Notes: a model not told the origin generated them from the letters alone. A stretch of DNA of 64,000 nt from Escherichia phage vB_EcoM_E9.1 (PP886230); one strand, 5' to 3'; positions 12,824 to 60,244 are shown, counted from the stretch's first letter. Translations and numbers: made by a program.

Positions 12824-13465
12824 ATGACTAAGCAAGACATATTCAAAACTTTAATTGACATTTTGCGTCCATCAAAAACTCGTTGTGCGATGGAGTTTGA
12901 TATTCCTTATGCTGAACGCGTAATCTTTCCACAAGTTAAAGCTGCTGGACTTACTTTGCTTGGAATGGGGATGTACTCTGTAGTAGTTGAACATAAAAAC
13001 TATCCTGGGCGTGCATTTAAAGTAACCACTTCACGCTGGGATGGTTTTCGTGCTTATGCAAAGTACTGCATTGAAAACGCAGGAACCAAGTTTCTTCCAG
13101 TGATCTACAGTGCAAACGAACAAGGAAACTTTGGATGGTATGAGATGGACAAGTACTATCCTATAATTAAACAAAAAAATAATTATGATGACTTTGTTAG
13201 TACTAAAATTGGAGATTTATATTCTTATGCACATGCTGGTCAGTACGCTACTTCAGTGAATGATATGCGTGGAAATTCTGAAGAGATTGCTATTGCGACG
13301 GTCGCTGCTAACATCATGAAAGAGTTTCACGGGCGTTTTGTACCAGACATTCATTCCAGTAATGTCATGATGGATAAAGATGGCAATGTATTCATTACTG
13401 ATCCTCTTTCGTGTGATGTACGTAGAGAAATACCAGTTACTGAAGAAGATCCAGTTTTTTATTGA
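12824..13465 (+). CDS. protein-kinase-like protein
   Basis: Gly-rich loop LLGMGMYSVVV, Lys motif AFKV, catalytic-loop-like DIHSSN, ITDP; start refined to ATG with RBS agagga. Confidence 0.5.
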   Translation: MTKQDIFKTLIDILRPSKTRCAMEFDIPYAERVIFPQVKAAGLTLLGMGMYSVVVEHKNYPGRAFKVTTSRWDGFRAYAKYCIENAGTKFLPVIYSANEQGNFGWYEMDKYYPIIKQKNNYDDFVSTKIGDLYSYAHAGQYATSVNDMRGNSEEIAIATVAANIMKEFHGRFVPDIHSSNVMMDKDGNVFITDPLSCDVRREIPVTEEDPVFY

Positions 13466-13526
13466 CAGAACTGATGTTCTGGTGTATTCTTAATAAACCA
13501 TAAAAATTGCGGTAAAGGATAAAATC

Positions 13527-13808
13527 ATGCGTTCATTTGAAAACTTAATAGGTAAGCATCTTTTATCTGAAATTGATGCAGACGTTAAAGAATTATCCAA
13601 ATCAAAAAGTTACATTCATTTGGATGAACTGTTTATTAAGTACGGTGAGATTGGTTTTAAGTCATTATTTGTTTTTACTATGAAAGTACATAGTTTAAAG
13701 TACTTCGATTTGAGTGCTAAAGATGGTGAACCGAATCTATATTACATGTATTACCTTAAGAACAAAGATGAAGCTAATACATTACTCTCTGAATATATAT
13801 TGGGGTAA
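13527..13808 (+). CDS. hypothetical protein (93 aa)
   Basis: ORF with RBS aaagga. Confidence 0.5.
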   Translation: MRSFENLIGKHLLSEIDADVKELSKSKSYIHLDELFIKYGEIGFKSLFVFTMKVHSLKYFDLSAKDGEPNLYYMYYLKNKDEANTLLSEYILG

Positions 13809-13810
13809 AA

Positions 13811-14149
13811 ATGGAACAATATTTTGAATTAATAAACAAAGTATCATTTTATGTAGTATCTTTGGTTTGGGTGTATTATATGTTTTGCTACATTATTGCA
13901 TTCTTCCGATACACTACTTTATATGAACGTATCTATTATGATGCCCCAATTTCATTCTTGATGTTTTGTGCATGTACGTGGGGAATATTAGAAGTACTGA
14001 TATGTGGGTATAGTACTGATGAATTAAATCTGGTATCGGTCTTGACTGGGTTTTCATTTGTTGTTATGATAGCTGCCGTTCCAGTATGGTTGTTCTTTGG
14101 ACTAGTTCATCGCATTGATATATGGCGTTCTAATATCCCTGAAAAGTAA
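13811..14149 (+). CDS. small polytopic membrane protein, paralog family A
   Basis: 3-4 hydrophobic helices; C-terminal R..NIPEK tail. Confidence 0.55.
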   Translation: MEQYFELINKVSFYVVSLVWVYYMFCYIIAFFRYTTLYERIYYDAPISFLMFCACTWGILEVLICGYSTDELNLVSVLTGFSFVVMIAAVPVWLFFGLVHRIDIWRSNIPEK

Positions 14150-14158
14150 GGATTGGTA

Positions 14159-14500
14159 ATGATTTATTACACTAACATGTTTGCCTATGCTGTTGCTTGC
14201 ATTTACATTGTGTACTTCTTATTCGGTGGAGTACTGTGCTTCTTTAAGTACAAAACGTTGTTCAACCGAATGTACCCAAATCATCCAATTGTGGTTGTAC
14301 TTTTGATTCTTTCAGTTTCTCAAATAATAGTTGAAACTACAATGGGTATCAGTAGTGTACATTATAGTTTTGGTACTATAGTAATTATTACTATGCTTAT
14401 TGCATACATTTTAGTACTTGGATATGGTATCTTTGGTAATATTGGTATGAAAATGTATCATCGAATTAAAACATTACGTGATAATCTACCGGAGCGTTGA
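14159..14500 (+). CDS. small polytopic membrane protein, paralog family A
   Basis: C-terminal R.NLPER; track start is an upstream TTG. Confidence 0.55.
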   Translation: MIYYTNMFAYAVACIYIVYFLFGGVLCFFKYKTLFNRMYPNHPIVVVLLILSVSQIIVETTMGISSVHYSFGTIVIITMLIAYILVLGYGIFGNIGMKMYHRIKTLRDNLPER

Positions 14501-14501
14501 T

Positions 14502-14846
14502 ATGTATAATTTGAACCTAATCTCATATATTATAACAACACTGTTTACATTCTATGCCTTTGTTGGTATAATCCTACTGTACTTTAAATTTTATAAAGTG
14601 TTTAACCGTTTCTATCCTTCAATGGAGAATGAGTTTTTCTTTGTGTTGTACGTAGGTTACACATTAATGGCTACATGTTTCACTGTAGCCGATGGTGTCA
14701 TCGGCATTAAAACTGATTCCCCAAATGGTAGTACGCTGGTTGCATTTATTCTTACTGGATTCCTTGCAACTTATATTGCCTTCATTACAACATGGTCAGT
14801 GGTTGAATTTCTCTTGCGACTACGAAAGAATATGCCGAATCGATAG
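14502..14846 (+). CDS. small polytopic membrane protein, paralog family A
   Basis: C-terminal RKNMPNR; internal ATG with RBS ggagcg. Confidence 0.55.
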   Translation: MYNLNLISYIITTLFTFYAFVGIILLYFKFYKVFNRFYPSMENEFFFVLYVGYTLMATCFTVADGVIGIKTDSPNGSTLVAFILTGFLATYIAFITTWSVVEFLLRLRKNMPNR

Positions 14847-14855
14847 GAGACATAT

Positions 14856-15110
14856 ATGTTTGCGTTGCGTAATAAAAACACTAAAGAATTATTATGTATT
14901 GATACCGTATGGGATTGTGCGGGGTCAACTACAGTTCTTGAAGAAGGAACTGGATATTGCGTGTTTGTTGTACATGATAGGAATGAACTCGAATTATTAC
15001 TTGCTGAGTTCAATGCTGGTGGTAATCCTAACAGTACTGAATACCCTGAGATTATCAATCCAGCACCACCAGGCTCTTATGAAATTCTACAACTGTGGGA
15101 GTTGAAGTAA
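14856..15110 (+). CDS. hypothetical protein (84 aa)
   Basis: RBS aggaga. Confidence 0.5.
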   Translation: MFALRNKNTKELLCIDTVWDCAGSTTVLEEGTGYCVFVVHDRNELELLLAEFNAGGNPNSTEYPEIINPAPPGSYEILQLWELK

Positions 15111-15491: not shown

Positions 15492-15548
15492 TTGACAAAC
15501 ACATTCAGTACTGTATAATGCTTATCAAGGGGATGAACTTCTCATCCC
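15492..15548 (+). promoter_or_regulatory. promoter plus 5' stem-loop (PeSL-like)
   Basis: TTGACA - 16 nt - TATAAT then GGGGATGA-acttc-TCATCCC hairpin. Confidence 0.6.
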
Positions 15549-15566: not shown

Positions 15567-16121
15567 ATGATTACTTTTAAGAAAACTGCTAACCACATCC
15601 ATGAAATCTACATTAACGGTCACAAAGCTGGCCTTCTTCGTTTACTCGCCCATCATCCTGATGTTACCGTATCTGATAATGAACCTAAAGATTGGCGTGT
15701 ATTTTTCTTTGGAAAGTACAGTGATTTTCAAGTATCAAACCTGAAGAACATTCGTTCAGTATGCACGTTAACTGAAATTAAAGAAAAGTTAGAAAAAGCA
15801 TTGAAAACTAATCCAGATGGTGTTCTTCCACCTGATAACTTTGTAGAGAAAGGTTATGCATTAGCTCATTTCAAAGATGGTACTATTCAATCTATCAGTA
15901 CTGAATATGAATATCAATGGACTGAGTACTTCACTTATGGATCGCGTAATACATTGATGGCTTCACGTAGTAAATTGGAAGAAGTACTGACTCGTATGAA
16001 TGAACGCGAGCGTCAATTTTATGACAAACCAGAAATGTGGAGTTCAACTTACATTGACCGTATTGACTATGTTATTATGACTCCAATCTTTGACACTGCT
16101 TACTATGATTCTTTGAAATAA
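15567..16121 (+). CDS. hypothetical protein (184 aa)
   Basis: ORF after promoter plus 5' hairpin at ~15492-15548. Confidence 0.55.
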   Translation: MITFKKTANHIHEIYINGHKAGLLRLLAHHPDVTVSDNEPKDWRVFFFGKYSDFQVSNLKNIRSVCTLTEIKEKLEKALKTNPDGVLPPDNFVEKGYALAHFKDGTIQSISTEYEYQWTEYFTYGSRNTLMASRSKLEEVLTRMNERERQFYDKPEMWSSTYIDRIDYVIMTPIFDTAYYDSLK

Positions 16122-16132
16122 GGATAACTTAT

Positions 16133-16309
16133 ATGAAACTACGTACTCGTAATCGACTGATGGATGCACTGTACCATGAACAGCTTTCACTGAATGAAGT
16201 GAAGCGTCAGTTAATGTACACATATCTGTTACCCGCTCGCATTGCAAAACAACGTGCTAAAGAATTGCTGAAAGAAGCAATCGAGTACTGGGAATCTGAT
16301 TCGTACTAA
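16133..16309 (+). CDS. hypothetical small protein (58 aa)
   Basis: short ORF with RBS aaggata, not in track; coordinates approximate. Confidence 0.4.
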   Translation: MKLRTRNRLMDALYHEQLSLNEVKRQLMYTYLLPARIAKQRAKELLKEAIEYWESDSY

Positions 16310-16313
16310 TATT

Positions 16314-16685
16314 ATGAATATAGATTTGAAAGGTGCAACACGAACTGTTATCCTTATTGGGGATTATGCTATCAAGATTCCAACCTTCAAAAGCTGGAAG
16401 TTATTCTTGACAGGAATGATAGCTAACCTCAATGAACGTTCGTGGATGCAGTACTCCAATCGTAGTGATAGTAGTATCTGTCCTACGTTGTGGTCATCAT
16501 GTACTGGACTAGTAACTGTACAGAAACGTTGTAAGCCAGTGCAACATAGGGGTTTATTTTGGGTGGAGTTGTGTGCTTTAGCATTGAATTCAGAGTTAAG
16601 TACTGACTTCTTCTATTCAGATGCGAAGCCAGAAAACTTTGGGTATCTGTGTGGTAAGTTGGTTAAACTTGATTATGGAGATTAA
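16314..16685 (+). CDS. mini protein-kinase-like protein
   Basis: GDYAIKIP (Lys motif), DAKPEN catalytic-loop signature, LDYG (DFG-like). Confidence 0.5.
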   Translation: MNIDLKGATRTVILIGDYAIKIPTFKSWKLFLTGMIANLNERSWMQYSNRSDSSICPTLWSSCTGLVTVQKRCKPVQHRGLFWVELCALALNSELSTDFFYSDAKPENFGYLCGKLVKLDYGD

Positions 16686-16686
16686 T

Positions 16687-16956
16687 ATGTACGCACTGTA
16701 TAATAAAGAAAAGAAACGATTTGCTAAGGTTGAAATTTCGATTGATACATTTGACATGTTGGAGTACTGTATTGTAACGGACCTATATGCTAACTTGTAT
16801 TACGTTCTTGATGACGTATCAGTACTGCAACGATTGCTTGAGAATTCCAAAAGCCAATGCCAGGGCATCTATGATGGTTCATCTTATGAAACACCTGAGT
16901 GTTCCTACGGCTATCTGGACGGGTATGAGATTGTGAAGTTGGGGATTGTTGAATAA
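16687..16956 (+). CDS. hypothetical protein
   Basis: internal ATG with ggag RBS inside track ORF 16621-16956. Confidence 0.45.
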   Translation: MYALYNKEKKRFAKVEISIDTFDMLEYCIVTDLYANLYYVLDDVSVLQRLLENSKSQCQGIYDGSSYETPECSYGYLDGYEIVKLGIVE

Positions 16957-49718: not shown

Positions 49719-49742
49719 AGCCCACCTGGTGGGCTTTTTTGT
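49719..49742 (+). terminator. intrinsic terminator
   Basis: agcccacctggtgggct + T-run. Confidence 0.7.
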
Positions 49743-49943: not shown

Positions 49944-50426
49944 ATGGCTAATGTAAAATCATTCATCAAAGCACTGGTAGCAAATGAAACTAACGTCGCG
50001 GCTGAGATCCTGGCTGAACTGGATAACGATACCATGAAAGCGGTACGCAATAATTTTAACATCGCGTACAGTACTGCGAAAGAACTACAAGCAAATAAAG
50101 CGGCAGAAATTGAAGCGGCAAAGGCGGCCCGTGAAGCAGAACTACAAGCAACAATCGAAAGTATCCAGGCGGCGGTGTCTGGATTGGATCTGGAAGTGGT
50201 TGTGGAAATGGCACATAAAGCCCTGGCGGTTAAGTATGGTGAAGATAAGCCAGAATCTAAACCCAAAAAATGGATTCAGGAACGCGTAGCGGTAGTACTG
50301 GACAACGGGGAAGAATATCTGATTCCGGTGCGTGGTAACTGTATTGCGGTAGTACTGGACGCTATCAAAGAAAGCGGTATGACTCGCGAGGAATGGATCG
50401 AAGCTCATCGCAAAGTTGAAGCATAA
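49944..50426 (+). CDS. hypothetical protein (160 aa), Ala/Glu-rich helical
   Basis: long 5' leader after promoter at ~49795; RBS gagga; terminator downstream. Confidence 0.6.
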   Translation: MANVKSFIKALVANETNVAAEILAELDNDTMKAVRNNFNIAYSTAKELQANKAAEIEAAKAAREAELQATIESIQAAVSGLDLEVVVEMAHKALAVKYGEDKPESKPKKWIQERVAVVLDNGEEYLIPVRGNCIAVVLDAIKESGMTREEWIEAHRKVEA

Positions 50427-50447
50427 CAATTAAAGTACTGAATCACT

Positions 50448-50473
50448 AGCCCACTGTATAAGTGGGCTTTTTT
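50448..50473 (+). terminator. intrinsic terminator
   Basis: agcccactgtataagtgggct + tttttt. Confidence 0.7.
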
Positions 50474-50637
50474 GTGTTTATCGTTTACCAGGCCACCAGC
50501 ACCGCCTAGAAACGATTCTAACGCATTAAACGGATTATCTGATGCATTGCCCTAGCTGGTGGCGTTAAGGCTGTAAGAACGCGATTGAGAGCGTTTAAAG
50601 TATTTTGCAAAAAGTAATAAAAAGTACTTGAACGATT

Positions 50638-50687
50638 AAGAGATTAGCGTATAATGTTTTACATCGAGAGGGGGAAACGGTTCTCCT
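50638..50687 (+). promoter_or_regulatory. PeSL-like cassette
   Basis: TTGAAC .. TATAAT .. GAGGGGGAAacggTTCTCC. Confidence 0.55.
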
Positions 50688-50710
50688 TCCAAATCAAAGG
50701 AATCAAAACA

Positions 50711-50938
50711 ATGGCTATTATCATTACTCGCGTATCTGGTACTACTGGCAACGAACAAGTAGTTGCAGTCATTACGAACAAGGCAGGTGCGGAATTGCAA
50801 AATGCAATGAATACCTGGGCCGTTAATGAGTTCGGTCAGTGGGCAAGTGTAGCATACATTGAAACCTATCAAGTGCCGTCGATTAGTTTAACTGATTTGG
50901 GCGTTGAGCGTATCCTTTGCCTTGATGAATTAAATTAA
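50711..50938 (+). CDS. hypothetical protein
   Basis: internal ATG (MAIIITRV) after RBS aagga. Confidence 0.55.
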   Translation: MAIIITRVSGTTGNEQVVAVITNKAGAELQNAMNTWAVNEFGQWASVAYIETYQVPSISLTDLGVERILCLDELN

Positions 50939-50946
50939 AAAAGTAC

Positions 50947-51006
50947 TTGCAAAGTAAATCGAATAAAGTATAATACATTACATCAAGGGGAGAAATGGTT
51001 CTCCCC
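50947..51006 (+). promoter_or_regulatory. PeSL-like cassette
   Basis: TTGCAA .. TATAAT .. GGGGAGAAatggTTCTCCCC. Confidence 0.6.
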
Positions 51007-51023
51007 ACTACAAGGAAACTAAA

Positions 51024-51236
51024 ATGGCTATCATTACTAAAATCAAAGTTAGTAAATCACTGGTTAAACTTGAAGAAGTGAAAGAAGGTTATAAAGTATC
51101 TTGGTGCGGTATGTATCGGACGTTCGCAGATATAGATGATGCGATCAATTATTACACTGACACGGTTAAAAACTTTGTTCGTGCTGATGTGGTTATGGCA
51201 GTGGCAACATATAAAGCATCAAAAGAAAGTAAGTAA
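51024..51236 (+). CDS. hypothetical protein; N-terminus resembles 54180 ORF
   Basis: MAII.K start; cassette upstream. Confidence 0.55.
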   Translation: MAIITKIKVSKSLVKLEEVKEGYKVSWCGMYRTFADIDDAINYYTDTVKNFVRADVVMAVATYKASKESK

Positions 51237-51317
51237 AAATATTATCACAGTACTATTGACATAGTTTGATAGTACTGGCATAATAACTTTTATCAAGACA
51301 ACTAAGAGGAAATTAAA

Positions 51318-51662
51318 ATGGCTAACATCAATACTATAGCAGCACAAAATATCAACCTGTCTTCTGTTGAAGTTGTACATATTGCCGCTCGGCGTTGGTT
51401 CCAGGCTTCATATGGTAACACTTATTTCTCTTTAAGTGTAGACGTAGAAATTGATGGTAATTTTATTGAAGTAGTAAACGTGCCGTTCCAATATGGATAC
51501 GGGGATCATTTTGACACTGTAGCAATGGAAGAATTTAGCAAGGTTATTAATATGGAAGGTAAAGAGTTTTTACGCGGTTCTTATCTTTCCCGTTTTTGCC
51601 GTGATAATAATATCACTGTTTATAGTTCTGTTAGTGATGTTAAACGCAAAAAAGATCTTTAA
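51318..51662 (+). CDS. hypothetical protein; paralog of 58202 ORF
   Basis: shared RW..GNTY...YGYG...VKRKKD motifs. Confidence 0.6.
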   Translation: MANINTIAAQNINLSSVEVVHIAARRWFQASYGNTYFSLSVDVEIDGNFIEVVNVPFQYGYGDHFDTVAMEEFSKVINMEGKEFLRGSYLSRFCRDNNITVYSSVSDVKRKKDL

Positions 51663-51742
51663 TTAGCTTTACTTTATGCAGATACTTTGATATAGTGTCT
51701 GCATAGGGGAAAGAAATTAAATTAACTTAAGAGGATAGTATA

Positions 51743-52012
51743 ATGAAAAATATCAGTACTTTAATCGATGCAGGTACTCATGTTCGTCGGTCTATGGTTG
51801 CAACCAGTACTACAAAACAAGTAGCGAGCGGTTATCTTGTATTTGTGCACGATGGTAAACTCCTGGAACGTTCAATCAATTTTGATGTTAAAAACAATTG
51901 CCGTTTTATTATCTTTAAGCGTGAGCAATATAAAATTGATTTACCAGCAAAGCCCATTAGTGGGGCGTACAACGTGCAATCATTGTTTGAACGTCAACCA
52001 TACACCTATTAA
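51743..52012 (+). CDS. hypothetical protein (89 aa)
   Basis: RBS agagga. Confidence 0.5.
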   Translation: MKNISTLIDAGTHVRRSMVATSTTKQVASGYLVFVHDGKLLERSINFDVKNNCRFIIFKREQYKIDLPAKPISGAYNVQSLFERQPYTY

Positions 52013-52063
52013 TCAAAACATCGTTAGCGGTCGATTCAGGCCGCTTATATTGGGGATTATACC

Positions 52064-52336
52064 ATGAACGTTAATCAAGTACTGAATGAGATCGAAAGCA
52101 TCATTAAACCGATGAAGCGTACTGATGCTATGTTAACACCGGAAGAATGCCGCCTTTATGAGCGTTACAGCGTCGAACAAGTCCAGGCAATGGCTATGGC
52201 TACCCCAGCCGTTAAACCGCCTGAGAATGCGTTACAGGACGTTACAGGGGATTATATCATCAATCCAGTACTAGGGAAGATGGCTGCAATCACCGAAGAT
52301 CAACAAGACTACTTAAGCCAGTACTTAAAAGGTTAA
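52064..52336 (+). CDS. hypothetical protein (90 aa)
   Basis: ORF with RBS. Confidence 0.5.
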   Translation: MNVNQVLNEIESIIKPMKRTDAMLTPEECRLYERYSVEQVQAMAMATPAVKPPENALQDVTGDYIINPVLGKMAAITEDQQDYLSQYLKG

Positions 52337-52341
52337 TTAAT

Positions 52342-52551
52342 ATGCTTACTGTACAGGATAAGATCGACATCTTAAAGGTTAATATGTATGTGATTGATGC
52401 AGAACCTGGTAAAGTATTTGCATACGATGATAGTACTGTAAGCGATTTCTACTATAGCCAGGCCGTGGGGGATCTTTCTGTACAGTCGGTTATTGAAAAC
52501 GTAGTTAATGCAGCGTATGAGCATTTACTTTCAAATAGTACTTGCAATTAG
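52342..52551 (+). CDS. hypothetical protein (69 aa)
   Basis: ORF. Confidence 0.5.
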   Translation: MLTVQDKIDILKVNMYVIDAEPGKVFAYDDSTVSDFYYSQAVGDLSVQSVIENVVNAAYEHLLSNSTCN

Positions 52552-52600
52552 TTTTTAAACGCGTATAATGTTTTACATCGAGAGCGGGAATAGTTCCCGC
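52542..52600 (+). promoter_or_regulatory. PeSL-like cassette
   Basis: TTGCAA .. TATAAT .. GCGGGAAtagTTCCCGC. Confidence 0.6.
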
Positions 52601-52621
52601 CTCACTTTTAAGGAATATGAA

Positions 52622-52768
52622 ATGAAAGCATCAAAAAAGAGTACTAACAAGAAAGCACGTTCAACCTTAGATGGGGTATTCCCTTTACGTTTCGTTGATG
52701 AAGTGGTTTCCTACCCGCCTGGCCTTACTCCTGAGATGGTAGAAAGTTTGCGTAAATCTAAAAAATAG
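52622..52768 (+). CDS. hypothetical small basic protein
   Basis: internal ATG (MKASKKSTNK) after RBS aagga. Confidence 0.5.
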   Translation: MKASKKSTNKKARSTLDGVFPLRFVDEVVSYPPGLTPEMVESLRKSKK

Positions 52769-52771
52769 TAC

Positions 52772-52831
52772 TTGCAATTAGTTTTTAGTACTGTATAATG
52801 TTTTACATGAAGGGGAGAAATGATTCTCCCC
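52772..52831 (+). promoter_or_regulatory. PeSL-like cassette
   Basis: TTGCAA .. gtactgTATAAT .. GGGGAGAAatgaTTCTCCCC. Confidence 0.6.
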
Positions 52832-52849
52832 AATAACAGGAGAAACAAA

Positions 52850-53002
52850 ATGAAACAATACAACGCTCGGTTTGATGTTACTATCGGTAACGGCAAAGGT
52901 CAATTCTCTTTCAGTACTCGCCGCAGTTATACAGAAAACTTCCTGCGTAATTGTGCATTGACCGCCGCTCAAATTAAACATTATTTTCAGGCTAAAAAAT
53001 GA
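52850..53002 (+). CDS. hypothetical small protein
   Basis: internal ATG (MKQYNARF) after RBS aggaga. Confidence 0.5.
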   Translation: MKQYNARFDVTIGNGKGQFSFSTRRSYTENFLRNCALTAAQIKHYFQAKK

Positions 53003-53088
53003 GATCATTAGCTTATTACAGTTCGGCCCTGGTCGGTGCATTGATCGCGGCGTTGTTAGTAACCTATCTATTCTTTATGGTGATTTAA
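52999..53088 (+). CDS. small hydrophobic peptide (29 aa)
   Basis: ATGA overlap with upstream stop; single TM-like helix; not in track. Confidence 0.4.
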   Translation: MRSLAYYSSALVGALIAALLVTYLFFMVI

Positions 53089-53226
53089 ATGAATCCTAAC
53101 GGTATAATTTACAGTACTCCTAAAACGAAAGCAGACAAGGTAAACGCTAAAAAAGCGAAAGTAAAGGAGTACATCAAACAAGGAATGACACGAAAGGCGG
53201 CGATTCTAAAAGCTAAAAATAAATGA
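53089..53226 (+). CDS. small Lys-rich peptide (45 aa)
   Basis: TAAATG overlap; not in track. Confidence 0.35.
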   Translation: MNPNGIIYSTPKTKADKVNAKKAKVKEYIKQGMTRKAAILKAKNK

Positions 53227-53230
53227 AAAA

Positions 53231-53264
53231 GTGGTTGACTTCGGTCAGCCATTTTGCTATTATA
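53231..53264 (+). terminator. terminator/promoter hybrid element (second-half variant)
   Basis: TGGTTGACttcgGTCAGCCAtttt GC TATTAT. Confidence 0.55.
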
Positions 53265-53367
53265 TATTCATTGAGAGATAGCTCACTAGCCCACAGGGTG
53301 CAGGAGTGTATCTATTGTATAATGTTTGAGTACTGAAAACTATTTTAAAGTATTTGATAAAAAGTAC

Positions 53368-53426
53368 TTGCAAACTATCTCAATAAGCGTATAATGTTTT
53401 ACATCGCAAGGGGAAACGGTTTCCCC
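53368..53426 (+). promoter_or_regulatory. PeSL-like cassette
   Basis: TTGCAA .. TATAAT .. GGGGAAAcggTTTCCCC. Confidence 0.6.
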
Positions 53427-53446
53427 TAGTAATAAGGAAACGAATC

Positions 53447-53788
53447 ATGACTATCTCAATTGCTCAATCTAACTTTGAAAATGAAATCATCGCCCAGGCA
53501 CTGCGTTTAAATGATGGTCGGGCCGAAATCAATTACGGTTTCAATTCAGGCGGTTGTGAAAAATATCAGTACTTTGTAACGGCTGATGGCGGTGTACTGG
53601 GCATCAATACAGTTATTGTAAACATACAGAAAATTAATTTCAATGATCCAGACGATAGCCAGTTTTACATCACTGGCGTAGACGTGAACTATGAGGATGA
53701 CTCACTAACTGATGACCACACTGGCGAGAAGTTAGAAAGTGCATACGGTGAAGATGATTATCAGTCCGGTCCAGAAGATTTCGAATAA
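53447..53788 (+). CDS. hypothetical acidic protein (113 aa)
   Basis: cassette upstream; RBS aagga. Confidence 0.55.
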   Translation: MTISIAQSNFENEIIAQALRLNDGRAEINYGFNSGGCEKYQYFVTADGGVLGINTVIVNIQKINFNDPDDSQFYITGVDVNYEDDSLTDDHTGEKLESAYGEDDYQSGPEDFE

Positions 53789-53802
53789 TATTAAAAAATA
53801 GT

Positions 53803-53862
53803 TTGACAATAGATTATAGTACTGTATAATAGTTTACATCAAGGGGAGAAAAACTTCTCCCC
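53803..53862 (+). promoter_or_regulatory. PeSL-like cassette
   Basis: TTGACA .. gtactgTATAAT .. GGGGAGAAaaacTTCTCCCC. Confidence 0.6.
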
Positions 53863-53884
53863 ACTAACAGAGAGAGAAAACAAA

Positions 53885-54097
53885 ATGGCTAATATCCGGT
53901 CGAAATTAAAAAATGCAAAACAAGTTTTATTTTCAGATCATGAATACTTTAATAAAGATATTACAGGAGTTACAAGTATCAAGGAAGTAAAAGAAAAAAC
54001 CGGCGTTTTGTGTGATGTGCGATTAGTTGGGACATTTGGGAATAACGTGCTATATCGCTGTGGTGATTACAATTTTACACTGACTATCATTAACTAA
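53885..54097 (+). CDS. hypothetical protein (70 aa)
   Basis: cassette upstream; RBS agagag. Confidence 0.55.
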   Translation: MANIRSKLKNAKQVLFSDHEYFNKDITGVTSIKEVKEKTGVLCDVRLVGTFGNNVLYRCGDYNFTLTIIN

Positions 54098-54179
54098 AAA
54101 TATTATCACAGTACTATTGACATAGTTTGATAGTACTGACATAATAACTTTTATCAACTACACTACTAAGGAATTAAAA

Positions 54180-54359
54180 ATGGCTATCATCGCAAAAACT
54201 GAAATCATCGGCCTGGATTCTATCATCATGACGTTTGAAGATCAAAAAGGTATGTATGTGGTTTCCTATGGTGATTATGTTCGGGAGTATGAAACGGTAG
54301 ACGAAGCCTTTGAAAGTTACATTCGCCAGGTGAATAAAGCATACGACGACTACCGCTAA
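54180..54359 (+). CDS. hypothetical protein (59 aa, not in track)
   Basis: MAIIAKTEIIGLDS; promoter TTGACA..CATAAT upstream; RBS aagga. Confidence 0.5.
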   Translation: MAIIAKTEIIGLDSIIMTFEDQKGMYVVSYGDYVREYETVDEAFESYIRQVNKAYDDYR

Positions 54360-54458
54360 AATATATTACCAGTACTATTAAAGATATTGACAACGTTTGA
54401 TAGTACTGTATAATAAGTTTTATAAACAGTAGTTAACTTAACCTAAGAGAGAAATAAA

Positions 54459-54602
54459 ATGATCGCACTGGATTCATTCATCGACGCAGTACTGGCAAAA
54501 ACTGGCGAGGATCTGACCGCAGAACAATACGCGATGATCGAACAATGTCAACAGGACGGTAAATCGGTGAAAGATACTGTTAAGATTATCCGCAAGATGT
54601 AA
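54459..54602 (+). CDS. hypothetical small protein (47 aa, not in track)
   Basis: promoter plus RBS agagag; terminator hairpin downstream. Confidence 0.45.
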   Translation: MIALDSFIDAVLAKTGEDLTAEQYAMIEQCQQDGKSVKDTVKIIRKM

Positions 54603-54608
54603 GATTAT

Positions 54609-54637
54609 AGCCCACTGGTTAACGCTGGTGGGCTTTA
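54609..54637 (+). terminator. terminator hairpin containing a Chi octamer
   Basis: agcccactggttaacGCTGGTGGgcttt. Confidence 0.5.
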
Positions 54638-54707
54638 ATTCATTACCCTATACAATGCCAGTACTAAACCGTTTATCTCGTTAGAATGCGTTACAGGACG
54701 TTTACCA

Positions 54708-54905
54708 ATGATTAGCATGAAATCAGTACAAAAACAAATAGAAACATTATCAAAAATTAAACGTAAACAGTACTCCTTAGAATATACAATCAATGGTAAC
54801 TATCATCTAATGAAAGAAAATAATTTTATAGTCATTGATGAATCATTGCAAATCATTAGTATAGTACTGAAAGCATTAATCAATGACAGAAAAAAATTAA
54901 AATAA
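54708..54905 (+). CDS. hypothetical protein (65 aa)
   Basis: ORF. Confidence 0.45.
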   Translation: MISMKSVQKQIETLSKIKRKQYSLEYTINGNYHLMKENNFIVIDESLQIISIVLKALINDRKKLK

Positions 54906-55236
54906 ACTATTGACAATATCATCCAGCACTGGCATAATACTTACACCAAGACGAGAACGTCACTAACCCATAGGGTGCACAAATGTAACTGTATAATATT
55001 GATCAAAAAATGATCTGATCAATACTTGATCAATTTGCGTAAAGTAGTATAATTCTATGCAGTTGGTTAGACGAAAGGTTATGATTAGTAGTGCAAGTGT
55101 ATAAAAATTTTCATGGTGTATCGTTCCGCACATATGGGGATGAATATGTGGTATCATGTGGATTGGAAAAAGTAAGAACAAGTAATATTATTGTCGCATT
55201 ACAGTACTATAGTATTTTTATAATGAGGTTAAAATA

Positions 55237-55494
55237 ATGGCTGTAGGATTCGCGAAAGATGGGGCCGAGCAAGACGAGATTAACGCAGTGATTCAGGCCG
55301 CCGTTAACCACGCTAGAAAGCAAATTAACGCACAAATAGAATCACTGATACATTGCCTCGACTGCGGCGATATAATCCCTGAGAAACGACGCCAGGCCGT
55401 TAAGGGATGTAAGTACTGCATAACTTGCCAGGAGGATCATGATAGTACTTTTAAACGTCCCCCGCGTAATTGTTGGCATAGATCTATGAGATAA
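55237..55494 (+). CDS. TraR/DksA-family C4 zinc-finger protein
   Basis: CLDCGDIIPEKRRQAV..CKYCITCQE matches the TraR C-x2-C-x17-C-x2-C finger and basic PE.RR motif. Confidence 0.7.
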   Translation: MAVGFAKDGAEQDEINAVIQAAVNHARKQINAQIESLIHCLDCGDIIPEKRRQAVKGCKYCITCQEDHDSTFKRPPRNCWHRSMR

Positions 55495-55500
55495 AAAGTA

Positions 55501-55528
55501 TTGACAGTACTGAAAGATAGTGTATAAT
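55501..55528 (+). promoter_or_regulatory. sigma70-type promoter upstream of GNAT-like gene
   Basis: TTGACA - 16 nt - TG-TATAAT. Confidence 0.55.
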
Positions 55529-55557
55529 GTTTTATATCTTAACTGAGGATAGTAATC

Positions 55558-55914
55558 ATGGGAATACAACATATCACGCGTACTACTGACAATGGCGAGA
55601 TCACTGGCTATCAAGTACAGGGCAAAGTAGCACAATTGCAGTACTGGTTTGTGAAACGTGGAATCATTGCACCGGATCTTGATTATGACCGTGTAGCGTT
55701 TATTGATTCTCTTTATGTTGATCCTGATAGTCGGGGCAATGGTGAAGGTAACGAATTAATGAATGCCTTTATTGATGCCGCCGATGATTCAGATTGTATC
55801 ATTTTAGAATGCGATACGGGAGAAGATAACGCCTTTAATCTTAAAGAATGGTACGAAGGTTTCGGATTCGAGGTACTGATCGATAGTGAATATCCTATCA
55901 TGATTTTATCATAG
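55558..55914 (+). CDS. GNAT-like acetyltransferase domain protein
   Basis: LYVDPDSRGNGEGNELM resembles GNAT motif A (R-G-x-G-x-G); C-terminal YEGFGF. Confidence 0.5.
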   Translation: MGIQHITRTTDNGEITGYQVQGKVAQLQYWFVKRGIIAPDLDYDRVAFIDSLYVDPDSRGNGEGNELMNAFIDAADDSDCIILECDTGEDNAFNLKEWYEGFGFEVLIDSEYPIMILS

Positions 55915-55992
55915 TACTTGCATTTAGTTTTCAGTACTGTTATAGTACTTGCATCAAGGGGAAACATCTTCCCCTACTAAGAGGAAATAAAA

Positions 55993-56181
55993 ATGGAAAA
56001 CTTATCAAGTATTTTAGTACAAGATGATTTCGGTAATCCTGGAAGTGCTATCATTGTTCGGGGTAATAAAGCAACGTTTGTTATTGCTGGTGGACCAGTA
56101 CAGCGTAGCATTAAAAATAATGCTGTTACCATTAATAATGTACGCTATCGCTTAGATAAAGAATTGATTCATAAACTGTAA
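55993..56181 (+). CDS. hypothetical protein (62 aa)
   Basis: cassette upstream; RBS agagga. Confidence 0.55.
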   Translation: MENLSSILVQDDFGNPGSAIIVRGNKATFVIAGGPVQRSIKNNAVTINNVRYRLDKELIHKL

Positions 56182-56208
56182 TATTAATTTAATAGAGGAT
56201 AACAATAA

Positions 56209-56532
56209 ATGTACATTCATACTACTATCACAAAGGAAGTCCGTTGCCAGTTCGAAAGTATTCCGGGCGTATGTTTCATCACTGGTACGTTTTCCCCTGG
56301 TGATCGTGATAATCCAGTACTGTTACAATTACGCCATCCATCATGGGATAAAGCATTTGATCTACCGTTGAATGAATTCGCAACTACTGCTGAAAAGTAC
56401 ATTAAAAATATTCGCGAGAATGATCGACTATTCATTAATGCTTTTAGTGATTCCGCGTTAAGCGAGATCCACGGCGTATTGGTTGCAATCATGGAATCAA
56501 TGCAGAAAACTAAATTCAAACAAGGTGAATAA
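56209..56532 (+). CDS. hypothetical protein (107 aa)
   Basis: RBS gagga. Confidence 0.55.
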   Translation: MYIHTTITKEVRCQFESIPGVCFITGTFSPGDRDNPVLLQLRHPSWDKAFDLPLNEFATTAEKYIKNIRENDRLFINAFSDSALSEIHGVLVAIMESMQKTKFKQGE

Positions 56533-56538
56533 AAACTA

Positions 56539-56598
56539 TTGACAATGCAACCCAGTACTGTATAATAGTTTACATGAAGGGGAGAAATGATTCTCCCC
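56539..56598 (+). promoter_or_regulatory. PeSL-like cassette
   Basis: TTGACA .. gtactgTATAAT .. GGGGAGAAatgaTTCTCCCC. Confidence 0.6.
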
Positions 56599-56615
56599 AC
56601 TGAGAGGAAAGAAAA

Positions 56616-56828
56616 ATGCAAGGTCAACTAATCGTTCGTAAATGGTCTGATACTAACGAAAAACCGTGGGATGTACAATACATCGGACCGGATGGGGTAT
56701 CACGTTATCAGCCTGGCGTAACGCATAGTACTGAGCAATATGCCGCCGCTCACCGCGAACGCCTGTTAGAATCCATGAAACAGGGATTCTGTGAAAAATT
56801 CATTCAAGATCATTGGCTGAAAGATTAA
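56616..56828 (+). CDS. hypothetical protein (70 aa)
   Basis: cassette upstream; RBS gagagga. Confidence 0.55.
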   Translation: MQGQLIVRKWSDTNEKPWDVQYIGPDGVSRYQPGVTHSTEQYAAAHRERLLESMKQGFCEKFIQDHWLKD

Positions 56829-56845
56829 TAGAAGGAGTACAGCTT

Positions 56846-56938
56846 ATGCAAATGAATCCGATGATTATTGTTTTAGCTGTACTTATGATCATTCATGCAA
56901 TTGTAGAAGTATTAACGCAATCAGGAGTAATAAAATGA
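56846..56938 (+). CDS. small hydrophobic peptide (30 aa)
   Basis: RBS aggag; single TM-like helix; not in track. Confidence 0.4.
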   Translation: MQMNPMIIVLAVLMIIHAIVEVLTQSGVIK

Positions 56939-57108
56939 TTCAAGTAGAATTATCAGTACTGAAAGATCTGTTTTATCGGTTAGGTACTACTGGAGAGTAT
57001 CCTAAAAGTGATACCGCAAAACTTTTTGTATCACTCGACTTATGGCAACGCGAACAATTAGTAATGTCCTGGCGTAAAGGTAAAGCAGATCGCGAGGTGA
57101 AAGCATGA
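56935..57108 (+). CDS. hypothetical small protein (57 aa)
   Basis: ATGA overlap; not in track. Confidence 0.4.
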   Translation: MIQVELSVLKDLFYRLGTTGEYPKSDTAKLFVSLDLWQREQLVMSWRKGKADREVKA

Positions 57109-57254
57109 AAGAATTCTTATTCGAAGTAGTGTTTCAAGGTGTCGGTAGTAACCAACTGATTCGCTCAAGTGGTTACAATGTTAACCAGGCATGGAATAAC
57201 ATTAAACAAATGTACCCGAACGCTATCACCTATCGCAACCCGAAAGAAGTTTAA
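57105..57254 (+). CDS. hypothetical small protein (49 aa)
   Basis: ATGA overlap; not in track. Confidence 0.4.
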   Translation: MKEFLFEVVFQGVGSNQLIRSSGYNVNQAWNNIKQMYPNAITYRNPKEV

Positions 57255-57267
57255 AAATATTTGAAAA

Positions 57268-57303
57268 AGGGATTGACTCCGGTCAGTCCCTTTGCTATTA
57301 TAT
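57268..57303 (+). terminator. terminator/promoter hybrid element (second-half variant)
   Basis: GGGATTGACtccgGTCAGTCCCttt GC TATTAT. Confidence 0.55.
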
Positions 57304-57391
57304 ACGCATAGAAACAATTCAGCCCACCGGGTGCATAAATGTATCTATTATATGCTGGTGGCTAGTACTGAAAACTATTTTTAAAAAGTAC

Positions 57392-57535
57392 TTGCATTGT
57401 ATTTAGAATCAAGTATAATGTTTTACATCAGGACGGGGAACGAAACAAGTAACCCCGTTAAGTAGTCCAGGAGTAAGACATACGAAAACCTCCCCTGATA
57501 AAATAGTTTGACAATAGAAATTAAACGAGTATAAT
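57392..57535 (+). promoter_or_regulatory. dual-promoter module with conserved inter-promoter element (copy 2)
   Basis: TTGCAT..TATAAT, element caggacgggg...cccctg (~57429-57496), TTGACA..TATAAT. Confidence 0.55.
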
Positions 57536-57567
57536 ACTTACATCAACCACTGATAAGGAAACATAAA

Positions 57568-57843
57568 ATGCGGATTCTACTGACAGCTAACGAAATCGAA
57601 CAAGTACTGACTACTAACCTGGAAGACTGGAAACGTGAAGCAGATATCCAGGCGGTTCAATGGTTAAATGATAAGTTAACGCCGGATGACTTAAGCAAGA
57701 TTGTAGATCCTCAATTCTACGAAGATATCCACGACACCGCGTTAAGCGTCGAGGATGTACTAGATAAGCACTTTATTGATACTGATTTGCAGGTTTACGG
57801 TCGTAAAAACTTTATCACTATTCACGACATTTACAATAATTAA
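57568..57843 (+). CDS. hypothetical protein (91 aa)
   Basis: downstream of dual-promoter module; RBS aagga. Confidence 0.55.
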   Translation: MRILLTANEIEQVLTTNLEDWKREADIQAVQWLNDKLTPDDLSKIVDPQFYEDIHDTALSVEDVLDKHFIDTDLQVYGRKNFITIHDIYNN

Positions 57844-57846
57844 GTA

Positions 57847-57908
57847 TTGACAAAGTATCTTAGTACTGTATAATAGTTTACATCAAGCGAGGGGAATGGT
57901 TCCCCTCC
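57847..57908 (+). promoter_or_regulatory. PeSL-like cassette
   Basis: TTGACA .. gtactgTATAAT .. GAGGGGAAtggTTCCCCTC. Confidence 0.6.
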
Positions 57909-57930
57909 TAACTAAAAGAGAGAAATAAAA

Positions 57931-58113
57931 ATGGCTAAGTGCACTATCTGCAAGAAAGAAATAGTATTAGTTCCAAGTGCCCGTGAACGTGCCGCTCGGT
58001 TCGGTGGCAAAGCGTCAGACTATACAAAAATGTTTACTACCCATACAGCTTGCCAGGTAGCAAAACGTTCACAAGAAAGCGTAGAATTAATGCGTAAACT
58101 TTCCAAAAAATAA
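57931..58113 (+). CDS. small basic Cys-containing protein (60 aa)
   Basis: CTICKKE....HTACQ; cassette upstream. Confidence 0.55.
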   Translation: MAKCTICKKEIVLVPSARERAARFGGKASDYTKMFTTHTACQVAKRSQESVELMRKLSKK

Positions 58114-58116
58114 GTA

Positions 58117-58179
58117 TTGACAAAGTATCTTAGTACTGTATAATAGTTTACATCAAGTGAGGGGAAACGGTTCCCCTCC
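58117..58179 (+). promoter_or_regulatory. PeSL-like cassette
   Basis: TTGACA .. gtactgTATAAT .. GAGGGGAAacggTTCCCCTC. Confidence 0.6.
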
Positions 58180-58201
58180 TAACAAAGAGAGAGAAATAAA
58201 A

Positions 58202-58525
58202 ATGGCTATGATCCTTGCCCAGAAAGTAGAATTGAAAATTGTAACCTCCTTTGACATTAACGTTAATCGGTGGACTGATTCACACGGCAATACTTACCAC
58301 TCTTGCTACGTGTCTGCGTTAATTGGCGACCGCTGGGAAGACCTGGGACACGAAACCTTTACATACGGTTACGGTACACAAGGCGAATACACGGGCTTGG
58401 AGATCATTAAAGAAACCGTTATAGGTTTCAACCCGAAAGAAAAAGTTATTCACCGCATCGAGGAAGAGATCAACAAAGAAATAACAGTTCGCTACCACGA
58501 TGTAAAACGTAAGAAAGACATGTAA
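58202..58525 (+). CDS. hypothetical protein; paralog of 51318 ORF
   Basis: internal ATG (MAMILAQ); shared motifs with 51318. Confidence 0.55.
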   Translation: MAMILAQKVELKIVTSFDINVNRWTDSHGNTYHSCYVSALIGDRWEDLGHETFTYGYGTQGEYTGLEIIKETVIGFNPKEKVIHRIEEEINKEITVRYHDVKRKKDM

Positions 58526-58620
58526 TAGAATCCATTTAAAGTACTATTTGACATTGCCCAGATAGTACTTTATAATAGACTCTAACTTGTAGTACTAACT
58601 TAACTAATAGGATGTATACC

Positions 58621-59016
58621 ATGATTACTAAATTCTACGCTACCCGTGAAGCTGCCCGTATTGTTGCACGCGAGGAAGGCGAAACATTTAAAGACATGGG
58701 CAAAGATGCACCGAAAGGTCAACGCTGGGCCGTACAGTTCAAAGAGATCTCTGATATTGTGAATTCACCGGAGCCAGTACTAACAGCAGCAGAACTAAAA
58801 CGAGCGGATTTACTGGCGTCAATACTTGATGCACAAGATGAGTTTATCGCTGATTCTGATATCAAAGTACAGACAAACCACACCGCTTGGACTCACGCGG
58901 ATCACCTGGCAAACCTTAAGCGTCCAAGTGAACTGATTCGCAACCAGAAAGAGATCCGACACGACCGTAAGGGTAATCGTGTAACAGTATACAGTAAACG
59001 CCGCCAGGTTATCTAA
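58621..59016 (+). CDS. hypothetical protein; paralog of 46404 ORF
   Basis: KFYATREAARIVAR..TFKDMG..DRKGNRVTVY; terminator downstream. Confidence 0.6.
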   Translation: MITKFYATREAARIVAREEGETFKDMGKDAPKGQRWAVQFKEISDIVNSPEPVLTAAELKRADLLASILDAQDEFIADSDIKVQTNHTAWTHADHLANLKRPSELIRNQKEIRHDRKGNRVTVYSKRRQVI

Positions 59017-59039
59017 TAACTTGCAGTACTAACAACACG

Positions 59040-59065
59040 GCGGGATCAGTTCCCGCCTTTTTTAT
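59040..59065 (+). terminator. intrinsic terminator
   Basis: ggcgggatcagttcccgcc + tttttt. Confidence 0.7.
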
Positions 59066-59077
59066 AGGACAAACAAA

Positions 59078-59332
59078 ATGATTAAGGTTCAACTATATAA
59101 AGATAACATCTTACGGGTACACTATAAAGCACCTCAGAGAATCATCACAAAGGCCGTACAGCTTGCTAATGAGTTTATTAATGGTAACCTATTACCAAGG
59201 AAGTTAAGCAACGGGAAACTGCGTGTAATCGATGTGGACACTAACAACAGAATAGTAATAGAGAACACAGGAAAAATAAACCTATATGAACACCAACAAT
59301 ATAATAAGAAAATAAAACTAATATCACGTTGA
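59078..59332 (+). CDS. hypothetical protein (84 aa)
   Basis: ORF after terminator. Confidence 0.5.
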   Translation: MIKVQLYKDNILRVHYKAPQRIITKAVQLANEFINGNLLPRKLSNGKLRVIDVDTNNRIVIENTGKINLYEHQQYNKKIKLISR

Positions 59333-59385
59333 CAGTACTCAAATGTTTTAGTACTATATGTACATACCAACACGGGGGAAACAAA

Positions 59386-59628
59386 ATGATTACTTTAGAA
59401 AAACGTATCAAAGAAACTACATCGCTGGTGGAACTGTTAACAGTACTCAAATGTAAAACAACACCATTCAGCACGCCGGACTTTATTAATATGGTTGATG
59501 TTAATGGTCGCTATCGTATCACGGTCGAACAAGGAGCGGCGAAAGTATTCAGTACTAAAAACACGAAGGAAGTGATCCACGCCGTTAATGTTAAAAAAGT
59601 AGTTGCCATTGATAGTAAAGTACTGTAA
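59386..59628 (+). CDS. hypothetical protein
   Basis: internal ATG (MITLEKRIKE) after RBS. Confidence 0.5.
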   Translation: MITLEKRIKETTSLVELLTVLKCKTTPFSTPDFINMVDVNGRYRITVEQGAAKVFSTKNTKEVIHAVNVKKVVAIDSKVL

Positions 59629-59659
59629 GATAGTTACATTAACTCAAGGAGAACATGCA

Positions 59660-60244
59660 ATGCGTAATTATACTAAATTCATCCGTACACTGTCAGAAAT
59701 GGAAACCAACAAAGAGATCCTTTCAGCTTGTCGGTTAGCTGGCCTGGAGATCATCGGTGCTGGTTCTTCCCGTATAGTATTCGCTTTAAATGATCGGTTA
59801 GTGATTAAGGTCGCGAATTGTGATGCGGGTGTAGAACAAAATGAAACTGAATGTAAGGTATGGAATTTTTTAGACTATGACCGCCCTCAGTTGAAACAGT
59901 ACTTTGCAAAGGTGCATATGCATTTATGCGATCCTGATAATATGTTTATCGTTATGGATCGGTTGAGTACTGCAAGCAAAGGCAGCGTAAAGCACGTTAA
60001 CGCGTGCAACGAATTAAAGTATAATATTAAACGTAATGCCATTGAACGCCAGCACCGCTTTGCTGATGCACTACAACACGTTGATGATACATTATCAACA
60101 CTAACGATAAGAGATATCAGAAAACAGAATATCGGCCAGGATCGTAATGGACTTATTAAAGTACTTGATTACGGTTTAACCCGCAATATCTGGAATCAGT
60201 ACTATAAAAAGCGTGATGTAGAAGCAAGTAAGGTAACACGATAA
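59660..60244 (+). CDS. mini protein-kinase-like protein
   Basis: IGAGSSRIVF (Gly loop), VIKVA (Lys), RDIRKQN (catalytic loop D-x4-N), VLDYG (DFG-like); internal ATG with RBS aaggag. Confidence 0.6.
   Translation: MRNYTKFIRTLSEMETNKEILSACRLAGLEIIGAGSSRIVFALNDRLVIKVANCDAGVEQNETECKVWNFLDYDRPQLKQYFAKVHMHLCDPDNMFIVMDRLSTASKGSVKHVNACNELKYNIKRNAIERQHRFADALQHVDDTLSTLTIRDIRKQNIGQDRNGLIKVLDYGLTRNIWNQYYKKRDVEASKVTR

Follow-up and report, generated by a model that had tools for sequence, protein, structure and literature searches.

Truncated protein-kinase-like genes of Escherichia phage vB_EcoM_E9.1, one of them from a large and apparently unrecognised family of 120-residue kinase cores

Among the described systems, the T7 kinase (T7K, gp0.7, PHROG 2828) lies closest to the subject of this study, three short kinase-like genes found in a stretch of 64,000 nucleotides (the window, analysed at its full length) of Escherichia phage vB_EcoM_E9.1 (PP886230). 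T7K has been described as a constitutively active, hyperpromiscuous and motif-blind Ser/Thr/Tyr kinase whose substrates make up much of the proteome and which impairs several bacterial defences, and in its kinase domain (residues 1-242) positions 213-215 are occupied by a DPV triplet (PMC13645617). The T7K homologues of jumbophages such as G17 and Munch do not carry the shut-off domain, and the residue after D-P is less conserved in them (PMC13645617, a 2026 Nature paper). Two further groups serve for comparison, namely the Hanks-type kinases (Pfam Pkinase, PF00069) and a set of minimal kinases that comprises the type III secretion effectors OspG, NleH1/2 and HopBF1 and the archaeal tRNA kinases Ark1/ArkI. 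These minimal enzymes have chains of 160-216 residues (169 for OspG, 160 for NleH1, 176 for HopBF1 and 173 for Ark1 in the solved structures) and keep helices after the DFG motif. In canonical kinases, helix F anchors the catalytic loop as well as both hydrophobic spines. A lysine placed two residues after the aspartate of the catalytic loop (D-x-K) is a mark of Ser/Thr protein kinases, from which the small-molecule kinases of the protein-kinase-like (PKL) superfamily differ.

The window is 96-99% identical to the genomes of Asteriusvirus jumbo phages of E. coli (phAPEC6, G17, 121Q, PBECO4, Sharanji, JP4). The three open reading frames are real and lie on the + strand at 12824-13465 (gene A, 213 residues), 16314-16685 (gene B, 123 residues) and 59660-60244 (gene C, 194 residues), exactly where the original prediction had placed them. 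In each of them the Gly-rich loop, the lysine, the catalytic loop and the Mg-binding aspartate follow one another in the correct order, and the motif residues coincide with invariant columns of each family alignment. The proteins had also been proposed to be too short for a full kinase while retaining its catalytic core, and this holds: A, B and C stop about 18-19, 1 and 22 residues past the DFG-equivalent, respectively, and consequently lack the activation segment, the APE motif and helices F-I of a canonical kinase. All three resemble T7K in that the kinase core ends some 20-30 residues or fewer past this point. The proposal of a single family has to be abandoned, since A belongs to the T7K-like family and B and C to two distant subfamilies of PHROG 4301. 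Likewise, a pseudokinase nature is unlikely given that the lysine, the glutamate and the Mg-binding aspartate are invariant and that the catalytic Asp/Lys/Asn are largely kept across hundreds of diverged homologues. With moderate confidence, we favour the view that A, B and C are three stand-alone enzymes of the PKL superfamily, acting as unregulated protein phosphotransferases and located in regions of early type. As regards novelty, A and C are already annotated as kinases and present in the literature, whereas B is annotated as hypothetical and no paper on it was found. On the evidence of its sequence family and of its predicted structure, B, so far unrecognised, belongs to a very large family of kinase cores of about 120 residues that end at the DFG-equivalent, and is hence an extreme variant of a known fold.

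Gene B, its family and its fold

The motifs of gene B comprise the loop KGATRTV (residues 6-12, nucleotides 16329-16349), AIKIP with K21 (within 16368-16382), NLNER with E41 (within 16425-16439), the catalytic loop DAKPEN (residues 103-108, 16620-16637) and DYG (residues 120-122, 16671-16679), after which the protein ends within one residue. The stop codon overlaps the GGAG ribosome-binding site of the following gene, whose ATG lies at 16687. The Gly-rich loop that had been attributed to the three proteins is present in A and C, whereas that of B has one glycine only, with G-x-T-R in place of the G-x-G-x-x-G of Hanks-type kinases.

The protein matches phrog_4301 with an E value of 4.2e-43 (profile positions 40-167 of 225). 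Both B and C are members of this family, which carries the label 'unknown function' in the library; what is described here is its kinase fold, the end of the protein at DYG and the size of the subfamily of 120 residues. Fifteen homologues of B, 45-98% identical to it, are all 118-127 residues long and all end one residue past D-Y-G, with G7, T9, R10, K21, P23, E41, D103, K105, P106, N108, G110, D120 and G122 invariant. When the B-family profile was searched against 1.84 billion cluster representatives (clusters at 50% identity), at least 1,211 representatives had E values at or below 1e-3, and 640 of them values at or below 1e-10. Their lengths are nearly all between 110 and 135 residues, the end of the profile coincides with the C-terminus of the proteins, and 114 of 158 members (~72%) end 0-3 residues past D-x-G. 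The family is spread over jumbo, T4-like, lambdoid and sipho-type phages as well as prophages. Among 134 diverse members, full invariance is limited to the columns of K21, E41 and D120, which correspond to the ATP-anchoring lysine, its glutamate partner in helix C and the Mg-binding aspartate of a kinase. The catalytic loop occurs in two forms, D-x-K-P-E-N-F-G (~64%) and E-N-K-x-D-S-F-G (~34%), the rest of the protein being conserved in both, and either a shift in register or another catalytic arrangement may underlie them. Conservation of the length and of the C-terminus across the family led us to reject the possibility that B is a truncated pseudogene.

B is annotated as a coding sequence (CDS) in G17, Sharanji, 121Q and others, and is listed as hypothetical in Asteriusvirus records. 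No Pfam family and no Pkinase match was obtained for B, no precomputed Pfam domain is present on the homologues of B or C, and literature searches found no paper on the B family or on a minimal phage kinase family of ~120 residues. Three side observations belong here. In phAPEC6 the orthologue of B is intact and 96.7% identical (MK817115.1, about 22182-22550) but has no CDS annotation. In Salmonella phage SD-1_S14 the match to B is limited to the C-terminal half. Finally, P0055, a sequence of 1,073 residues with 16 near-identical repeats of 66 residues, matches the B profile in part; it looks like translated tandem-repeat DNA, and hence like a spurious match and not a kinase.

A structure prediction had been suggested as a check, and for B it yields a protein-kinase-like fold. 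The AlphaFold2 model (predicted local distance difference test, pLDDT, 90; predicted template modelling score, pTM, 0.80) presents its elements in the order beta-beta-beta, helix C, beta-beta, helix E, short helix, beta-beta. Its N-lobe has a sheet of five strands and helix C, and these are followed by helix E, the catalytic loop and a beta7-beta8 hairpin bearing the Mg-binding aspartate, as expected of the PKL fold. A Foldseek search of this model against the PDB gave 1,737 matches, and the 50 matches listed are kinases only. Among them are Lpg2603, TTK and WbdD, with template modelling scores (TM) of 0.5-0.63 normalised to the query. Minimal kinases also appear among the structural matches (OspG, 7.1; Ark1, 7.1; NleH1, 6.5; HopBF1, 6.4), although these are longer than B and continue with helices where B ends. 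No sequence homology to OspG, NleH1/2, HopBF1 or Ark1/ArkI was detected, and B and C are phage genes, found outside the effector context of the secreted kinases. The best BFVD matches come from phages and include a protein of Ralstonia phage RP12 named 'protein kinase domain-containing protein' in UniProt (TM 0.84).

The contexts in which homologues of B are found bear on whether it works as a separate protein. An SU10-like phage has its homologue 5' of the terminase gene, and in lambdoid Salmonella prophages the homologue is flanked by the lysis gene Rz and by Nu1. Another homologue is part of an nrd gene cluster, and in JS10, a T4-like phage, gene 24.3 and rnlB are the neighbours. Across these four unrelated phage contexts no conserved neighbour of B was found, and the flanking proteins are unrelated to each other and to the 89-residue product of the gene that follows B. 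This absence of homology rules out a conserved C-lobe partner encoded by a neighbour. For the same reason, we rejected a split kinase in which the C-lobe would be supplied by the translationally coupled gene at 16687-16956. A few relatives of B are longer, namely Kc263 (267 residues), P0141 and P0162. Their C-terminal extensions are unrelated to a kinase C-lobe and have no Pfam match at E <= 1.

Genes A and C and the relationships among the three proteins

Gene A encodes a T7K-like kinase domain, as indicated by PHROG, BLASTP and the family alignment. Its motifs are the Gly-rich loop LGMGMYS (residues 46-52, nucleotides 12959-12979), AFKV with K66 (within 13013-13024), DIHSSN (residues 175-180, 13346-13363) and TDPL (residues 192-195, 13397-13408). 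It matches phrog_15752 with an E value of 4e-91 and phrog_2828, the T7 kinase family, with 8e-17. In BLASTP it is 26% identical to T7 gp0.7 over 178 residues (E 5e-9) with all motifs aligned: LGMGMYS with LGNGHFS, the beta3 lysine with its counterpart, DIHSSN with DMHSGN, and ITDPLS with ITDPVS. In an alignment of 16 sequences that includes T7 gp0.7, the residues G47, G49, K66, D175, H177, N180, T192, D193 and P194 are invariant, and homologues of gene A carry PF27024 (PF27024.1), a family outside the Pfam set that was scanned. A DYG motif had been proposed for each of the three proteins. It is present in B and C, whereas A has D193-P194-L195 at this position, matching the DPV of the T7 kinase. 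The use of D-P-x for DFG together with a D-x-H-x-x-N loop is a trait of the T7K-like family and, among the three proteins, is found in A only.

A is thus a direct homologue of T7K that differs from it in the leucine that replaces valine after D-P and in the lack of the C-terminal shut-off, DNA-binding domain present in the T7K of Autographiviridae. Its end about 18-19 residues past DPL, with no shut-off domain, fits the jumbophage sub-clade and not the T7 architecture. Two in-frame ATGs are available, at 12791 and 12824. The upstream one is used by Sharanji and by a cluster of 224-residue proteins, while the start at 12824 is supported by phAPEC6 and by all homologues of 213 residues, which begin with MTK. 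In 121Q, PBECO4 and phAPEC6 the gene is annotated as 'protein kinase', and the Sharanji paper names the orthologue WNN14432.1 as a T7 kinase homologue (PMC11895373). Owing to this annotation in relatives and to the G17 orthologue included in PMC13645617, A is already known as a sequence family, and is itself a presumed kinase.

Gene C encodes a truncated protein similar to Hanks-type kinases, an assignment obtained from PHROG, Pfam and PDB profiles, and is preceded by the ribosome-binding site AAGGAG at 59646-59651 (+ strand). The protein consists of two N-terminal helices, a core that extends from the Gly-rich loop to DYG, and a basic tail of 22 residues. Its motifs are GAGSSRIVF (residues 33-41, nucleotides 59756-59782), VIKVA with K50 (within 59801-59815), QNETE with E64 (within 59837-59851), DIRKQN (residues 152-157, 60113-60130) and DYG (residues 170-172, 60167-60175). 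It matches phrog_4301 (E 1e-41, profile positions 13-184), and the invariant positions of its family include G33, G35, K50, E64, D152, D170 and G172. The comparison with Pkinase that the original prediction had called for gave no match for A or B and a match below the threshold for C (E 0.0024, 17.8 bits), colinear over residues 46-181 and model positions 26-152 of 263. For the RaK2 orthologue (194 residues) the match is somewhat stronger (E 2.8e-4, 20.8 bits, model positions 1-152 of 263), and Pkinase is matched by 8 of 13 members of the C family. As the match stops at model position 152, C is equivalent to the N-terminal 60% of a Hanks-type kinase, with two N-terminal helices and a tail added to it. 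Searched against PDB sequences, the C-family profile has more than 250 matches at E <1, of which nearly all are kinases, and the best of these, MKK4 and MKK7 (E 1.5e-4 to 8e-4), are aligned from the Gly-rich loop to just past DFG.

Orthologues of C were found only in Rak2-like jumbo phages, and the gene is annotated as a protein kinase in ph0011, fEgEco12, Turkey3, K64-1 and fENko-Kae01. The orthologue WNN14351.1 is listed in the Sharanji paper as a further protein kinase (PMC11895373). Accordingly, C is already annotated as a kinase, and catalysis by it is presumed from its sequence. In a PADLOC scan C matches the defence kinase PD-T4-6 weakly. This was put down to generic kinase homology, and the assignment was rejected.

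Compared directly with one another by phmmer and BLASTP, A, B and C showed no similarity. Comparison of profiles with hhalign raised the probability of a relationship between B and C from 66% with 15 B sequences to 95.5% with 134 sequences (E 1.4e-8, 118 colinear columns), and on this basis B and C are clearly homologous as two distant branches of PHROG 4301. In terms of layout, B is approximately C without the N-terminal helices, the insert ahead of the catalytic loop and the tail. In agreement with this, the BFVD model of a RaK2 protein of the C type matches the model of B with an E value of 5e-5, which supports a PKL fold for C indirectly. The A family gave a weak though colinear signal of 22% with C and no detectable profile signal with B, its two pairings with B-family profiles staying below 1%. 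Conversely, B and C have no match to the T7K-like profiles PHROG 2828 and 15752. Their resemblance is to Hanks-type kinases: in canonical order and spacing they display the Gly-rich loop, the beta3 lysine, the helix-C glutamate, a D-x-K-x-x-N catalytic loop (DAKPEN in B, DIRKQN in C) and D-Y-G, and profile matches in the PDB include MKK4/7, PKC, BTK and TTK. They depart from these enzymes in having no counterpart of the activation segment, APE and helices F-I (approximately model positions 153-263 of Pkinase). Hidden Markov models of the B and C families revealed no further kinase paralogue among the 208 open reading frames of at least 60 residues in the window, and an NCBIfam scan gave nothing significant.

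Proposed activity and alternative explanations

The architecture common to the three proteins consists of an ATP-binding N-lobe (strands beta1-3 with the lysine, and helix C with the glutamate or an equivalent), helix E, the catalytic loop and the Mg-binding aspartate, with a stop 1-22 residues later. In the mechanism that we propose, Mg-ATP would be bound through Lys/Glu/Asp. The gamma-phosphate would then be transferred through the Asp/Lys/Asn of the catalytic loop, which in B and C has the D-x-K-x-x-N form of Ser/Thr kinases, and proteins of the host or of the phage would accept the phosphate on their hydroxyl groups. What is conserved serves to hold Mg-ATP and to catalyse phosphotransfer, and the parts that are missing (the activation segment, the P+1/APE loop and the helical F-I lobe for substrate docking) are those that regulate the enzyme and position its substrate. 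From this combination, constitutively active and poorly selective enzymes comparable to T7K would be expected. The most economical reading is therefore that A and C, and probably though less surely B, are unregulated phosphotransferases of low specificity used early against host proteins. A role in host takeover, as originally suggested, is plausible in view of the consensus sigma-70 promoters in these regions and of the precedent set by T7K, and the same activity could serve anti-defence early in infection.

Several observations weigh against this reading. The shallow B profile has zero matches among PDB sequences, and the deep B-family profile finds among PDB kinase sequences TTK only, at an E value of about 0.15. 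Because these sequence matches are weak, the kinase assignment of B draws on its structure and on its homology to C. Neither B nor C reaches the Pfam gathering threshold (31.7 bits for Pkinase), and the structure prediction of C, built from 13 sequences, had a pLDDT of 49.5, so that the model was kept out of the fold search. B has neither helix F nor any later element, and a core of 120 residues may be unstable or inactive on its own. The E-N-K-x-D-S loop in about one third of the B family, together with the further catalytic substitutions seen in some longer relatives such as Kc263, implies that the chemistry of the family may be non-uniform. Finally, the early expression ascribed to A, B and C is deduced from promoter patterns.

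A stronger proposal, which we put forward tentatively and consider rather doubtful, is that the B family represents the smallest autonomous protein-kinase catalytic unit known, a catalytically active 'half kinase' made up of no more than the ATP-binding lobe, the catalytic loop and the Mg-binding aspartate. It would either be an unregulated, motif-blind enzyme that many phages turn on host proteins or defences, or borrow a host protein as its C-lobe.

The alternative that survives best, albeit an unlikely one, would make B, and possibly C, something other than a protein kinase, namely an ATPase, a nucleotide-binding protein or a phosphotransferase that acts on small molecules. With the same low likelihood, nucleotides, immune second messengers, lipids, sugars or antibiotic-like compounds would be the candidates for modification or sequestration. 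Small-molecule enzymes do appear among the structural matches of B, with SAICAR synthetase at 8.1 and viomycin, macrolide, ethanolamine and corramycin kinases at 6.5-7.5, and B has no lobe onto which a protein substrate could dock. Moreover, the catalytic loop of the family varies (D/E at position 103, N/S at position 108), and in unrelated phages the gene is found where accessory, moron-like genes are, a placement typical of anti-defence genes. However, D-x-K-P-E-N is the signature of Ser/Thr protein kinases, the closest sequence matches are TTK and MKK-type protein kinases, and T7K, whose kinase core also stops soon after its DFG-equivalent, phosphorylates proteins (PMC13645617).

Somewhat less likely again is that B, C or both are inactive alone, either as an ATP-binding pseudokinase scaffold or as a half-enzyme that needs a host or phage partner, or homodimerisation, to complete its C-lobe. 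The end of B one residue past DYG speaks for this possibility, and the known minimal kinases with PDB structures still have 160-176 residues. OspG, one of these enzymes, needs a host partner for full activity and is activated by binding of E2~ubiquitin. Similarly, a host partner or a homodimer may supply the C-lobe of B. A scaffold, however, has no need of an invariant Lys/Glu/Mg-Asp set and a conserved Asp/Lys/Asn across more than 130 diverged sequences, no conserved neighbour gene is available as the source of a partner, and the extensions of the longer relatives are not C-lobes.

The weakest alternative, a chance occurrence of the motifs in short AT-rich reading frames or the decay of a longer C-like gene into B, could appeal to the missing annotation in phAPEC6, the lack of direct BLASTP or phmmer similarity between B and C and their scores below the Pfam threshold, but is very improbable in the face of a length and C-terminus kept in 15 homologues down to 45% identity and in 1,211 representatives from unrelated phages, a confident model, invariance confined to functional residues and CDS annotation in several relatives.

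If the phosphotransferase reading is correct, one jumbo phage would carry three independent kinases of the same truncated design, and the precedent of the T7 kinase, which disarms many bacterial defence systems by indiscriminate phosphorylation (PMC13645617), illustrates what such enzymes could accomplish. B is the part worth pursuing, as a member of a very large accessory-gene family that is spread over unrelated phages and prophages and for which no describing paper was found. An active B would define a minimal sequence for kinase catalysis, devoid of helix F, activation loop and substrate lobe. It would, moreover, broaden the range of known uses of phosphorylation in the conflict between phage and host and offer a 120-residue scaffold for protein engineering. 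Were B inactive alone, it would provide a natural system for the completion of a kinase core in trans. At the level of annotation, PHROG 4301 and the reading frames of ~120 residues that are labelled 'hypothetical' or left uncalled, as in phAPEC6, can be labelled kinase-like.

Genomic setting of the three genes

The DNA of the window is AT-rich, and the coding strand switches at ~24 kb and ~44 kb. The GC skew goes from positive to negative at ~24000 and back at ~44000, matching a block of - strand genes with + strand blocks on either side. Each of the three genes lies within a run of small + strand genes with sigma-70-type promoters upstream. Immediately 5' of gene A, a consensus scan (pattern only) identified a sigma-70-like promoter at 12766-12795 (+ strand), TTGACT-18-TATGAT with an extended -10 TG, which matches the consensus at 10 of 12 positions. 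The run that includes gene B (15567-16956, + strand) is headed by TTGACA-16-TATAAT at 15492-15519 (+ strand), a perfect match in the pattern scan (12 of 12), from which B is presumably transcribed. Gene C is located between terminators at 59039-59057 and 60257-60284. The latter is an intrinsic-terminator-like hairpin on the + strand with a stem of 12 pairs that closes the transcription unit containing C, and the equivalent site is an annotated terminator in phage G17.

In several related genomes the C gene occurs twice. Its region matches at least two places per record in G17 (record positions 4249-4833), BF17, WPEC3, JP4, fEgEco12 and fENko-Kae01, and in fENko-Kae01 the gene falls under the annotated direct terminal repeat. 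These repeated matches and this annotation place the C gene of the relatives within a few kb of the end of the genome, in a direct terminal repeat, a location that, like the sigma-70 promoters, speaks for a setting of early type.

The part of the window that surrounds gene C (44000-64000) contains at least 25 copies of a conserved intergenic cassette of 57-100 nucleotides, placed ahead of nearly every small + strand gene (for example at 52765-52821, 57364-57440 and 60358-60466). Each cassette is composed, in this order, of a sigma-70-like promoter (AAAGTACTTGCA or TTGACA, 17 nucleotides, GTATAAT), GTTTTACATC, a conserved GGGGAAnnGGTTCCCC hairpin, a ribosome-binding site and the ATG. It looks like a modular unit for early-gene expression with a common stem-loop in the 5' untranslated region. 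On the other side of the window, just 3' of gene A, three tandem paralogous genes occupy the + strand at 13811-14149, 14153-14500 and 14478-14846. Their products, of 112-122 residues and resembling multi-pass membrane proteins, have in common the motif ...F(K/R)Y(K/T)TLxxRxYP... and a C-terminal R-x-N-(I/L/M)-P-(E/N)-(K/R).

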